Shown here: positions 4,365 through 7,377 of the stretch, piece by piece
How the letters are laid out: each line of letters opens with the position of its first letter
Numbering within the stretch: position 1 is the first letter of the stretch
NCBI GenBank assembly: GCA_963677485.1
Contig: OY781964.1
Span: 1,152,001 to 1,216,000 of the forward strand
Source: Armatimonadota bacterium
GTDB lineage: Bacteria; Armatimonadota; HRBIN16
Length of the DNA stretch: 64,000 nt
Direction: 5' to 3'
Translations under genes and position numbers: made by a program
Notes under the pieces: generated by a model
The model's database searches: none
The model's input: the letters and a program-made list of their open reading frames with translations, nothing else
Told to the model about the DNA's origin: nothing

Positions 4365-5780
4365 TCACGCCGTGGCGGGCACGCCAGTCCCCACCCTGCG
4401 CCCAATGGCGTAGCACACGGCCGCAACGATCAGCCCGGGGTACATCGGCTGGATGTCCGCTGGGAACACCGGCCAGGTCGACGAGCCATGCGCAATGCCC
4501 ACCCCCAGCCAGATGCTGGAGACCACCGGACCTAAAACCATAGCTGCAAGCACCCACTTGCTATGGGCCCGCCCCGTCTGCCAGTAGCTGCCCAGCAGTG
4601 GGATCAACAGCCCGGGGATACACACCGTGCCCAGCAGATACCACAATCCGATCACGCTCTGCACTTTCCACGCCAGGAATATCGCCAGAGTGCTGACCAC
4701 CGCGATGCTCCACTTCGTCCATAGCTGCGCCACGTCCTCATTGTTGCCCTTGCGGATGCGCCACACCAGGTCGCGTCCAAAAGTCACCGCCGACATAAAG
4801 GTAAAGCTCACCACCGTGCTCATGACCGTGGCGAACATCCCCGCATAAAAGGCACCCTTGGCGCCAGATGGCAGCACCTTCTGAGCCAGCAGAGGGTAGG
4901 CGTACATCGGCTGGTCGATATGCCCCAGAATCGCCCGGCTGTAGAGGCCTGCTGTGGTGGTCATGAAGTCAAACAGAATCCAGAACAGGATACTCACCAG
5001 AATGCCTCGCTGGGCCACTTGCGGGCTTTTGGCGGCGGCACAGCGTTGGTGAAAGCCCGGATCGACCAGTGTCTGCATGGCGATGAAGAACCACACGATG
5101 GCATACGACAGGCTGTTACCGCCCAGCCAGGTGAGGTGCAGCGGGGGTAGATGCGCTTTCAGGTAGCCGTATCCGCCGTAGGTATGGAAAAGGAACGGAA
5201 GGATCACAGCGAATCCCGCGAACATGAAGATGAACTGCAGGATGTTCACCCGCACATCGCTGAGGAAACCGCCCTTGAATATGGTCAGAACGCTCAGAAG
5301 GGTGCCGCACGCCAGGCAAACCAGCATCGGCCAGCCAAACACCAGTTTGAACAGCACACCGATGATCAGCACATAAGGAGCCGGGTTGACCAGCAGAAAA
5401 GTAAGTATGGCGCCCGCCAGCCCGCAGCGTTCGCCAAACGCCTTGCGCAACTGATCGGGGATGGTCACCGCTCCGCCTGTCCGCACCTTCGGTGCCAGCC
5501 ATGCCGCGTAGATCAGCGCGAAGATGTAATAGGGCACGCCCATCACAGTCCAGTTGCTCAAGCCAGAGCCGTAGCTCCACTCCCCCACCCCAAGGATACC
5601 GCCATACCATGTAGCCACCAGTGTAGCCACAAACGCCGGCATGGTGAGAGCGCGTCCGGCCAGCAGATAGCCCTCGGAATCGTGTTTGCGTAACTGCCTC
5701 TGAGCCAGCCAGCCCACCAGCACCGCGCTGAGCATAAACAAAGTGATGACGGCGATATCTACCGCACTAAAAGTTACCAT
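4365..5780 (-). CDS. Sodium:solute symporter (SSS) family transporter, probable thiamine or thiamine-precursor importer
   Basis: About 13 hydrophobic segments. SSS motifs 'YLLAGRAL', 'TIPDQL', 'QRCAAAKS'. Last gene of a TPP-riboswitch operon; its start overlaps the thiN stop. Confidence 0.85.
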   Translation of the reverse strand: MVTFSAVDIAVITLFMLSAVLVGWLAQRQLRKHDSEGYLLAGRALTMPAFVATLVATWYGGILGVGEWSYGSGLSNWTVMGVPYYIFALIYAAWLAPKVRTGGAVTIPDQLRKAFGERCGLAGAILTFLLVNPAPYVLIIGVLFKLVFGWPMLVCLACGTLLSVLTIFKGGFLSDVRVNILQFIFMFAGFAVILPFLFHTYGGYGYLKAHLPPLHLTWLGGNSLSYAIVWFFIAMQTLVDPGFHQRCAAAKSPQVAQRGILVSILFWILFDFMTTTAGLYSRAILGHIDQPMYAYPLLAQKVLPSGAKGAFYAGMFATVMSTVVSFTFMSAVTFGRDLVWRIRKGNNEDVAQLWTKWSIAVVSTLAIFLAWKVQSVIGLWYLLGTVCIPGLLIPLLGSYWQTGRAHSKWVLAAMVLGPVVSSIWLGVGIAHGSSTWPVFPADIQPMYPGLIVAAVCYAIGRRVGTGVPATA

Positions 5781-6424
5781 TCCCAGTCAATACCTTCCAT
5801 TTCGGTGTGCATGTGTACCACAATCAATCGACCTGCGCGAAATACTACGGTGACCCGCTCTTGCGTCGCTTCGTTGCTAACTCCGCGTGTGCCCATGGGC
5901 AGAGTCTCATCGCACAACGGCCACTTCAAACCGGATGTGCAGACACCCTCCGCCTGCGGCAGGCCAAACAGCGACACAGTCTGTCCCGCTATCGTATGCA
6001 GCTCCAACGGTTCGGAAGCACAAGGAACGTAGATGCCTTCGTTGTCTGACACCATGCGAAGTGATAGCTGATCGGCCCAGTTGGACGCACAAAGCAGGTT
6101 CCCCAGCTCATGATCCAGCCGTCGGCCGGTGCCACCAAGGATGGTGACACGGGCCGACGGGTAAGACGAATAGATCGCGGTAAGGGATTTCTCAAGGTCG
6201 GTGTTCTCTTGAGTCTCCACTTTACAGAGGCAGTGCCGATACATCGTCGCGAGACCGGGGGAGAGTGAGTCGATGTCTCCCACGATCAGGTTTGGCTCCA
6301 CTCCGGCATCCAGCAGGTGGCGGGCGCCGTTGTCGGCAGCCACTACCAACTCGGAATACCTGGCACAGCGTTGGGTCAGCTCCACAGATGGAGGCTGACC
6401 GTTGAGCATCAGCAGCACTCGCAT
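5774..6424 (-). CDS. thiN: Thiamine pyrophosphokinase
   Basis: Motifs 'AADNGA', 'GDIDS', 'QENTDLEK', 'GGTGRRLDHELGN', 'GLKWPL', 'GVSNE'. Confidence 0.95.
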   Translation of the reverse strand: MRVLLMLNGQPPSVELTQRCARYSELVVAADNGARHLLDAGVEPNLIVGDIDSLSPGLATMYRHCLCKVETQENTDLEKSLTAIYSSYPSARVTILGGTGRRLDHELGNLLCASNWADQLSLRMVSDNEGIYVPCASEPLELHTIAGQTVSLFGLPQAEGVCTSGLKWPLCDETLPMGTRGVSNEATQERVTVVFRAGRLIVVHMHTEMEGIDWEW

Positions 6425-7171
6425 CTAGTCACACGCCCAGAAGTCGTCACCGCTGACCATACCCTCGACGCTGGTGCGGGAAGCATCAAATGCGCCGGAA
6501 CTCGTGATGAACTTGGCATGACCGTCGGCGAATATCATCGTGCCGCCCATGGGGTGCCACATGCTGTAGTAGTCGTAGGGATAGTCGCCGTCATAGCCAT
6601 ATTTATCACTGCCAGGCGAGGTGCGGCTGAAGAAGGGGAATATCTCGTCGCGGATGATCCGCGTCTCAGATGGGTAGGCGAAGCTGTCCAGGCTGACATC
6701 CCGCGCCTGCCAACCGGCCCCGGTGCAGACGTCCGCATTGTTCTGCGTCGACTCGCCGCAGACTATCGAATAGGCGCAGTGGCTGAAGCGGTAGCTGGAG
6801 CCGTAGGCTTGGAGATAGCTGTGCGATCCAGGCACATCGCGTCCCTGGAACGGGGTGCCCCTGTCACTGGGACAGCCGAATACATTCTTGGCTTTGCAGT
6901 AAGGCAGCAGCTCCACCTCAATGCCCTTATGGCCACTCTTGCCTGGGCCTGGATCACTGTTATATGCGTAGAAGATGGGCATCACACCATCTGAGTCTTC
7001 TGCGTACATCATAACGGCTAGACCTATCTGCTTGCCGTTACTCAGGCAGGCGGTCGCTTTGGCTTTTTCTCGTGCTTGTGCGAATACAGGGAAAAGTATG
7101 GCCGCCAGGATTGCGATGATCGCGATCACCACCAGCAGCTCTATCAATGTGAAAGCTGAGTTCCGTTTCAT
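6425..7171 (-). CDS. Prepilin-type N-terminal cleavage/methylation protein with DUF1559 (SBP_bac_10) and H-X9-DG domains
   Basis: [37 protein letters not shown], '[11 protein letters not shown]', '[15 protein letters not shown]'. ATG at 7171 with GGAGG RBS. Stop abuts the thiN ATG. Confidence 0.92.
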
Positions 7172-7189
7172 GTTAGTATATACCTCCAG

Positions 7190-7233
7190 AAAGCGAAAAC
7201 ACCACCACGCTCCTGAAGGAAGCGTCGGTGGTG
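7190..7233 (-). terminator. Intrinsic terminator forming the expression platform of the TPP riboswitch
   Basis: Minus strand CACCACCGACGCTTCC-TTCA-GGAGCGTGGTGGTG followed by TTTTCGCTTT, lying between the aptamer and the first start codon. Confidence 0.75.
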
Positions 7234-7250
7234 AGAACTCAACCATGCGA

Positions 7251-7333
7251 CCGCCTTCCTACACCGGTACTGACCGGGTCAGGTTCCAAGGGTTTTCCCA
7301 ATTGGGATCTCAGCCGGATGGCTCCCCTGGCGG
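7251..7333 (-). ncRNA. TPP (THI-box) riboswitch
   Basis: Minus strand CCGCC-AGGGGAGCC...GGCTGAGA...ACCCTTGGAACCTGACCCGGTCAGTACCGGTGTAGGAA-GGCGG carries the conserved TPP cores (GCTGAGA, ACCTGA, TACC..GTAGGAA) and a P1 CCGCC/GGCGG helix. It lies upstream of thiN. Confidence 0.95.
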
Positions 7334-7368
7334 CTCACTCCATTGCGGGGGTGAACTTCGCTACTTCC

Positions 7369-7377
7369 ATTATACCA
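7369..7377 (-). promoter_or_regulatory. Extended -10 promoter (TGGTATAAT) for the thiamine operon
   Basis: TGnTATAAT on the minus strand about 35 nt upstream of the aptamer. Confidence 0.55.

Follow-up and report, generated by a model that had tools for sequence, protein, structure and literature searches.

In the Bacteroidetes, the TonB-dependent outer-membrane transporter OMthi is encoded together with pnuT and tnr3 in an operon described as being under the control of a thiamine pyrophosphate (TPP) riboswitch (PMC5613172), and sodium:solute symporters of the ThiV type, for hydroxymethylpyrimidine (HMP) or thiamine, have been described under TPP riboswitches, for example in SAR11 (PMC11452348). 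Here, we examined an operon of an Armatimonadota bacterium, located in a 64,000-nt stretch of its genome (the window; contig OY781964.1, positions 1,152,001 to 1,216,000), in which a TPP riboswitch precedes the gene of a prepilin-type protein of the DUF1559/H-X9-DG family (hereafter, the pilin), followed by thiN and the gene of a sodium:solute symporter (SSS) family transporter. As in the OMthi-pnuT-tnr3 operon, the genes placed under a single TPP riboswitch encode a component of the envelope, a transporter of the inner membrane and a thiamine pyrophosphokinase; these units can also occur apart, with the riboswitch retained. Unlike in the OMthi operon as described there, the envelope component is prepilin-type and not a TonB barrel, the transporter is of the SSS family and not PnuT, and the system is predicted from sequence. 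The likeness to ThiV, which is one of family, lies in an SSS permease within the TPP regulon of organisms missing part of the synthesis pathway; in contrast to ThiV, which is not known to have a pilin partner, the thiN neighbour points to thiamine rather than HMP.

Prepilin-type DUF1559/H-X9-DG proteins range over the Planctomycetota, Verrucomicrobiota, Lentisphaerota and Armatimonadota and, as a family, are among the largest that lack an assigned function; to our knowledge, no ligand has been assigned to the family at large. Compared with this family, the clade to which the pilin belongs is narrow, has invariant head residues of its own and carries a fixed TPP riboswitch. Since a riboswitch names the metabolite that its genes serve, such pairings provide testable ligands for DUF1559 proteins. 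Like type IV pili and the pseudopili of type II secretion systems (T2SS), the system comprises a class III signal peptide with Glu5, a hydrophobic alpha-1 helix, and an encoded peptidase, ATPases and secretins. The import of DNA by type IV competence pili is a precedent for pilus-driven import, but in the present case the cargo would be a small vitamin, and a filament and its retraction would be hypothetical. Our searches of a literature library found no paper on the pairing of a TPP riboswitch with a DUF1559 pilin or on thiamine riboswitches of Armatimonadota. The reading that we favour, with a probability of roughly 55%, is that the pilin-like protein captures thiamine outside the cytoplasm for an inner-membrane importer and thereby raises its supply.

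The pairing of the riboswitch with the pilin is conserved well beyond the window. In a search of 61 Armatimonadota genomes with the pilin protein, full-length orthologs were found in 21 other genomes with E values from 1e-60 to 1e-159 (paralogs, about 1e-30), and a TPP aptamer (Rfam RF00059) was present on the gene strand just upstream in all 21 orthologous loci. Among eight weaker best pilin matches, taken as controls, Rfam placed no TPP aptamer upstream of seven; the exception (L030) is a divergent pilin that, like the one examined here, lies ahead of an SSS gene. A scan with the head-domain alignment, using one genome per species, found 165 relatives, and a covariance model built from 24 aptamers (R1) matched on the gene strand in every one of the best 80 of these loci. 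The median distance from the aptamer to the aligned pilin start is 85 nt; the distance does not exceed 200 nt in 77 of the 80 loci, and the largest gap (L068) contains a second clade pilin. Rfam re-found the aptamer in 17 of 18 rechecked loci (the 17 lowest R1 scorers and L068), and the one miss (L111) is truncated by a contig end. The clade is claimed here for Armatimonadota only, as a genome search gave no kinship for three loci labelled as other phyla (L073, L097 and L105). Hence, this genomic pattern shows that the pilin clade belongs to the thiamine regulon of the Armatimonadota as a dedicated component.

We then considered which gene the switch serves. Of the 80 loci, 24 have thiN behind the pilin and 18 have the SSS gene there (two of these without thiN), while 54 have neither; the counts of following genes are lower bounds, because contig ends cut some loci. 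In L044, L045, L046, L050 and L052, convergent genes lie directly after the pilin, and in L047, L051 and L068, tandem clade pilins stand behind a single switch. For 19 of the 22 clade genomes among the 61, no TPP riboswitch other than the pilin leader was found. In a genus labelled g2, thiN and the SSS gene are paired at a separate site (at a distance of 62 kb in G011, for instance) that has no TPP riboswitch. As the pilin is often the lone regulated gene, and as no TPP riboswitch was found with thiN and SSS genes located elsewhere, it is the pilin, and not thiN or the SSS gene, that is the constant target of the switch. An earlier interpretation of the window made from its letters (the sequence-only reading) had raised a chance insertion of the DUF1559 gene. 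In that case, the switch would really serve thiN and the SSS gene, and the DUF1559 gene would have come to lie between them by accident. The gene order in the window, with the pilin between the riboswitch and thiN-SSS, is what such an accident would leave. However, the switch stays with the pilin in all 21 orthologous and all 80 related loci, including those in which thiN and the SSS gene are elsewhere or the pilin is alone, and we give a chance insertion next to no credence.

Clustering of the neighbouring open reading frames (ORFs) of the 80 loci gave no conserved partner beyond thiN, SSS and further pilins. The other recurrent neighbours were unrelated housekeeping genes (RmlD, isocitrate/isopropylmalate dehydrogenase and an extracytoplasmic function (ECF) sigma factor). 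In one genome (G054), a second TPP riboswitch (L176, G054:C5:229594-233305) is followed by two ORFs, each about 220 aa long, which resemble membrane proteins and could encode another thiamine-related transporter.

The phyletic distribution of the clade follows the genotype of thiamine salvage, in support of the sequence-only reading. With a strong ThiN match defined as E<=1e-13, 31 of the 61 genomes qualified; these include all 22 clade genomes, and the clade occurs in none of the remaining 30. Three genomes of a family labelled f15, which carry a divergent TPP-linked pilin, are also among them (25 of 31 in total). ThiC was found in only two of the 22 clade genomes (the host and G038), compared to 30 of the 39 others, and SSS orthologs were found in 25 genomes, every one with ThiN. 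In the host genome (a single contig of 5.22 Mb, 97% complete), there are two TPP riboswitches, the other of which precedes an ORF read as ThiD-like, then ThiC. This pattern links the pilin clade to the salvage of outside thiamine through ThiN. The bacteria concerned are mostly unable to make the thiamine pyrimidine and, because most carriers lack ThiC, rely on other organisms to supply either the vitamin or its pyrimidine moiety. In this way, one branch of a very large unexplained family is tied to thiamine scavenging.

The pilin has the signature of a prepilin. It matches the N-terminal methylation models PF07963 (N_methyl; 35.7 bits against 21.2) and TIGR02532 (29.3 against 16.3), and its predicted prepilin cleavage site reads NSA|FTLIE. 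The match to DUF1559/SBP_bac_10 (PF07596; 34.5 bits against 23.3) covers only profile positions 2-61 of 268, and NCBIfam gave just generic pilin/pseudopilin N-terminal matches. The pilin shares with the DUF1559 family the N-terminal methylation motif, the CxSNxKQ...Y..D.D segment and the C-terminal H-X9-DG motif (H206-x9-D216-G217), although the H-X9-DG model, which we take to be TIGR04294, is not listed for the pilin at E<=0.001 in the NCBIfam scan. In the host genome, the pilin helix is nearly identical across 12 paralogs, and C42, S44, N45, Q48, Y56, D59, P167, D216 and G217 are common to these and to the clade. By contrast, H81, E85, D103, S125, S141, R174, E176 and W205 do not vary within the clade and occur in none of the 12 paralogs, and Y123, S126, Y127, F129, Y193 and Y201 are nearly clade-specific by the same comparison. 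A head-domain profile search retrieved 12,596 representative clusters at E<=1e-3 and 21 at E<=1e-30, and hence the clade makes up a distinct but minor part of a family of enormous size. Another H-X9-DG prepilin-like gene lies in the window at 61351-62115 on the plus strand (254 aa), with no Rfam match upstream. Outside the window, at genome positions 1441340-1444543 on the minus strand, three prepilin-like paralogs, each of 269 aa, stand in tandem, and their N- and C-terminal stretches are nearly identical.

Structure prediction, to which the sequence-only reading had looked for a binding pocket, gave a confident head but no structural neighbour. The head model (77 sequences) reached a mean predicted local distance difference test score (pLDDT) of 95.4 and a predicted template modelling score (pTM) of 0.90, and consists of one helix-on-sheet domain; the full-length model had a pLDDT of 77.8, with a helix at 9-59. 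Foldseek against the PDB gave no match at E<=0.001 for either the full-length or the head model, the best being type IV pilins (E 2.6 for the head). PDB sequence matches of the pilin were confined to the pilin N-terminal helix, and an ESM Atlas search gave DUF1559 or unnamed clusters only. A periplasmic solute-binding protein, as suggested by the Pfam name SBP_bac_10, was rejected, as the model has no two-lobed fold and no PDB match at this threshold.

These results bear on whether the pilin might instead be an extracytoplasmic enzyme on a stalk, such as a thiamine monophosphate (TMP)/TPP phosphatase or a hydrolase that frees degraded or bound thiamine. Such an enzyme would be in keeping with the head lacking a known binding fold, with clade-invariant candidates for catalysis or phosphate binding (H81, E85, D103, S125, S126, R174 and E176) and with the restriction of the clade to ThiN genomes, which need intact thiamine. 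However, the pilin matched no enzyme family in Pfam or NCBIfam, no enzyme neighbour was found in the PDB, the tandem pilins behind one switch (L047, L051 and L068) resemble subunits more, and the parallel clade linked to cobalamin (B12) riboswitches, described below, is more easily explained by ligand capture. We consider an enzyme unlikely.

The sequence-only reading had also raised the possibility that other vitamin riboswitches precede such genes, and for cobalamin this is the case. Among the best 30 cobalamin-riboswitch loci of the 61 genomes (L178-L207), 15 are followed on the same strand by a prepilin-type gene, which starts within about 310 nt of the riboswitch in 14 cases; other cobalamin riboswitches lie near a TonB-dependent barrel match (e.g., in G060, G048 and G036). 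In the host genome, outside the window, there is a sub-threshold cobalamin-riboswitch core at 3437636-3437710 on the minus strand (29.1 versus 31.5 bits, E 2.8e-4 in a small search), 54 nt upstream of a lone H-X9-DG pilin gene (3436854-3437582, minus strand). This core was the only riboswitch seen in an Rfam scan upstream of 19 other prepilin-like genes of the host. In L086, a pilin-like gene (about 7896-8261, minus strand) lies behind a cobalamin riboswitch (8366-8508, minus strand, 37.7 bits), about 3.6 kb from a TPP-linked pilin on the same contig.

A tree was calculated from 62 head domains. Of these, 29 were taken from the 77 TPP rows (every third row, together with that of the window and the final four); the others were two additional f15 pilins, 13 of 14 first-gene B12 pilins, the 12 host paralogs and six of the seven riboswitch-free best matches. 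The main TPP clade was supported at 87/97 and the f15 TPP pilins formed a separate clade (100/100), while all 13 placed B12-linked pilins grouped with the pilin of the host's B12 core in one clade (100/98). As the TPP- and B12-linked pilins separate in the tree, the riboswitch class maps onto pilin clades, which hints at an undescribed envelope step in vitamin scavenging. We also considered that the pilin may never touch thiamine and may be a starvation-induced subunit that re-tools a pilus or pseudopilus, for example for attachment to vitamin producers or for the secretion of a scavenging factor. The full prepilin signature, the helix common to all paralogs, the several pilus/T2SS-like machines encoded in the genome and the lack of ThiC in most carriers are all consistent with such a role. 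However, separate well-supported clades follow separate vitamin riboswitches, each with its own invariant head residues, a pattern better explained by specificity for ligands than by a generic response to starvation; moreover, no secreted partner is conserved beside the gene. A re-tooled pilus, too, seems improbable to us.

The distinct B12 clade lends some support to the proposal of the sequence-only reading that the paralogs are ligand-specific modules. In its widest form, this proposal would make the vitamin-specific DUF1559 clades the ligand-recognising subunits of an ATP-powered pilus/secretin import that replaces TonB transport, with the thiamine and cobalamin clades interchangeable on a shared stalk and machine. 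The host genome encodes three secretins, one prepilin peptidase (Peptidase_A24) and eight ATPases of the T2SSE family, which shows a capacity for pilin processing and assembly, though not the act itself. The expected anticorrelation with TonB-dependent receptors did not hold strictly: the TonB-dependent barrel (PF00593) had no match in the host genome at its 97% completeness, but at least one barrel match was found in 42 of the 61 genomes, among them 14 of the 22 clade genomes. On balance, we regard this wider import system as tentative and rather doubtful.

Thiamine capture by the pilin could proceed as follows. The prepilin peptidase would cut after Ala6. The conserved pilin helix would then hold the protein outside the cytoplasm, as an inner-membrane anchor or as part of an assembly built by a type IV pilus/T2SS-like machine. 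The clade-specific head, with its invariant aromatic, acidic and basic residues, would capture scarce thiamine or a phosphate ester and so boost the supply to an inner-membrane importer, here the SSS protein, and ThiN would trap the vitamin as TPP. The pilin would improve affinity or reach, and salvage would be possible without it. If this is true, the pilin represents a new class of component in vitamin uptake, and the regulators become a rule for reading other paralogs.

Several points weigh against capture. No SSS ortholog was found with this query in six of the 22 clade genomes (one locus ends at a contig end), and six g2 genomes (G003, G010, G012, G013, G016 and G017) keep thiN and SSS while the clade was not found in them. 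Since these same-genus genomes retain the salvage genes, the pilin is accessory and dispensable for salvage, not an obligatory conduit. Furthermore, the 61 genomes are related and their counts are not independent events, so that the phyletic counts overstate independence, and the salvage families may stem from few events. The TPP-linked pilins split into two clades and are not one. The modelled head seems to link to no known thiamine-binding fold, since there were no PDB matches despite a confident model. Finally, thiamine is small enough for porins, and the need for envelope capture is not obvious. Of the six g2 genomes without the pilin, five have no TPP riboswitch and one, G013, has one. 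This sole TPP riboswitch of G013 (L162, G013:C20:13935-17654) precedes genes read as thiM-thiE-thiD and a TenA-like ORF, a set that would amount to precursor salvage in place of the pilin.

The features of the operon are given in Table 1. The Rfam match to RF00059 covers model positions 1-105 of 105, extends somewhat beyond the interval at which the sequence-only reading had put the aptamer (7251-7333), and is the sole Rfam family matched in the window. The terminator predicted downstream of it was likewise recovered: between the aptamer and the pilin start codon, the fold and sequence show a 14-pair hairpin (7233-7200) followed by the U-rich run TTTTCGCTTTC (7199-7189), and a simple terminator scan located the inner stem at 7225-7207. 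The entire 181-nt leader has a fold energy of -70 kcal/mol (z -2.49). The promoter fared less well. An extended -10-like element, TGGTATAAT, is visible by eye within the 62 nt that separate the aptamer from the stop of the upstream gene (7401), but a -35/-10 consensus scan of 4200-7500 gave no site, and hence the promoter is weakly supported. The operon is predicted to be a TPP-repressed thiamine-salvage unit. With ample TPP, the aptamer should promote formation of the terminator hairpin, and transcription would stop; with little TPP, the pilin-like protein would be produced together with ThiN and the SSS transporter.

Table 1. Features of the thiamine-regulated operon, in coordinates of the window.
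Feature	Position	Strand	Basis and remarks
TPP riboswitch aptamer	7239-7338	minus	RF00059, 65.1 bits (gathering score 54.3; E 1.6e-10)
Intrinsic-terminator expression platform	7189-7233	minus	Fold and sequence; inner stem by scan
Shine-Dalgarno GGAGG	7183-7187	minus	11 nt ahead of the ATG at 7171; sequence
Extended -10 promoter-like element TGGTATAAT	7369-7377	minus	By eye; weak
Prepilin-type DUF1559/H-X9-DG protein, TPP-linked clade	6425-7171	minus	248 aa; Pfam, NCBIfam, orthologs, models
thiN, thiamine diphosphokinase	5774-6424	minus	216 aa; TIGR01378, PF04263, PF04265
SSS-family transporter (sodium:solute symporter), candidate thiamine importer	4365-5780	minus	471 aa; PF00474

The three tightly coupled genes of the sequence-only reading were confirmed by their coordinates and family matches. 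The ATG of thiN begins at the base right after the pilin stop codon, and the start of the SSS gene overlaps the end of thiN by 7 nt. A longer pilin ORF of 273 aa, starting at 7246, was rejected as the gene, since it crosses the terminator. ThiN matches the TIGR01378 equivalog at 132.4 bits (cut-off 76.4, NCBIfam), as well as TPK_catalytic (75.9 bits) and TPK_B1_binding (46.8 bits) in Pfam. The transporter matches SSF (PF00474) at 102.3 bits against 22.8 in Pfam and scores 101 bits on TIGR00813 in NCBIfam, under that model's cut-off of 184; in many relatives, the SSS ortholog adjoins thiN or the pilin. A complex prediction for the pilin and the SSS transporter gave a score of 0.00, which weighs neither for nor against binding. 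Upstream of the leader, on the same strand, lies a gene of a PMT_2-type glycosyltransferase (7401-8804, 29.7 bits), an adjacency that was not seen again when the neighbours of the 80 related loci were clustered.

Metatranscriptome contigs from two libraries of two studies, 90-99% alike, match parts of the operon. One match (7058-7363) covers the aptamer, the terminator and the first 113 nt of the pilin gene, and others lie at 6931-7262, 6497-6685, 5361-5498 and 4927-5155, the parts without cover carrying no information. A further match (6370-6501) bridges the junction of the pilin and thiN; such libraries can contain DNA, and a contig that spans two genes is no proof of a single transcript. 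Taken together, the contigs from RNA libraries give a weak hint that the operon is expressed.

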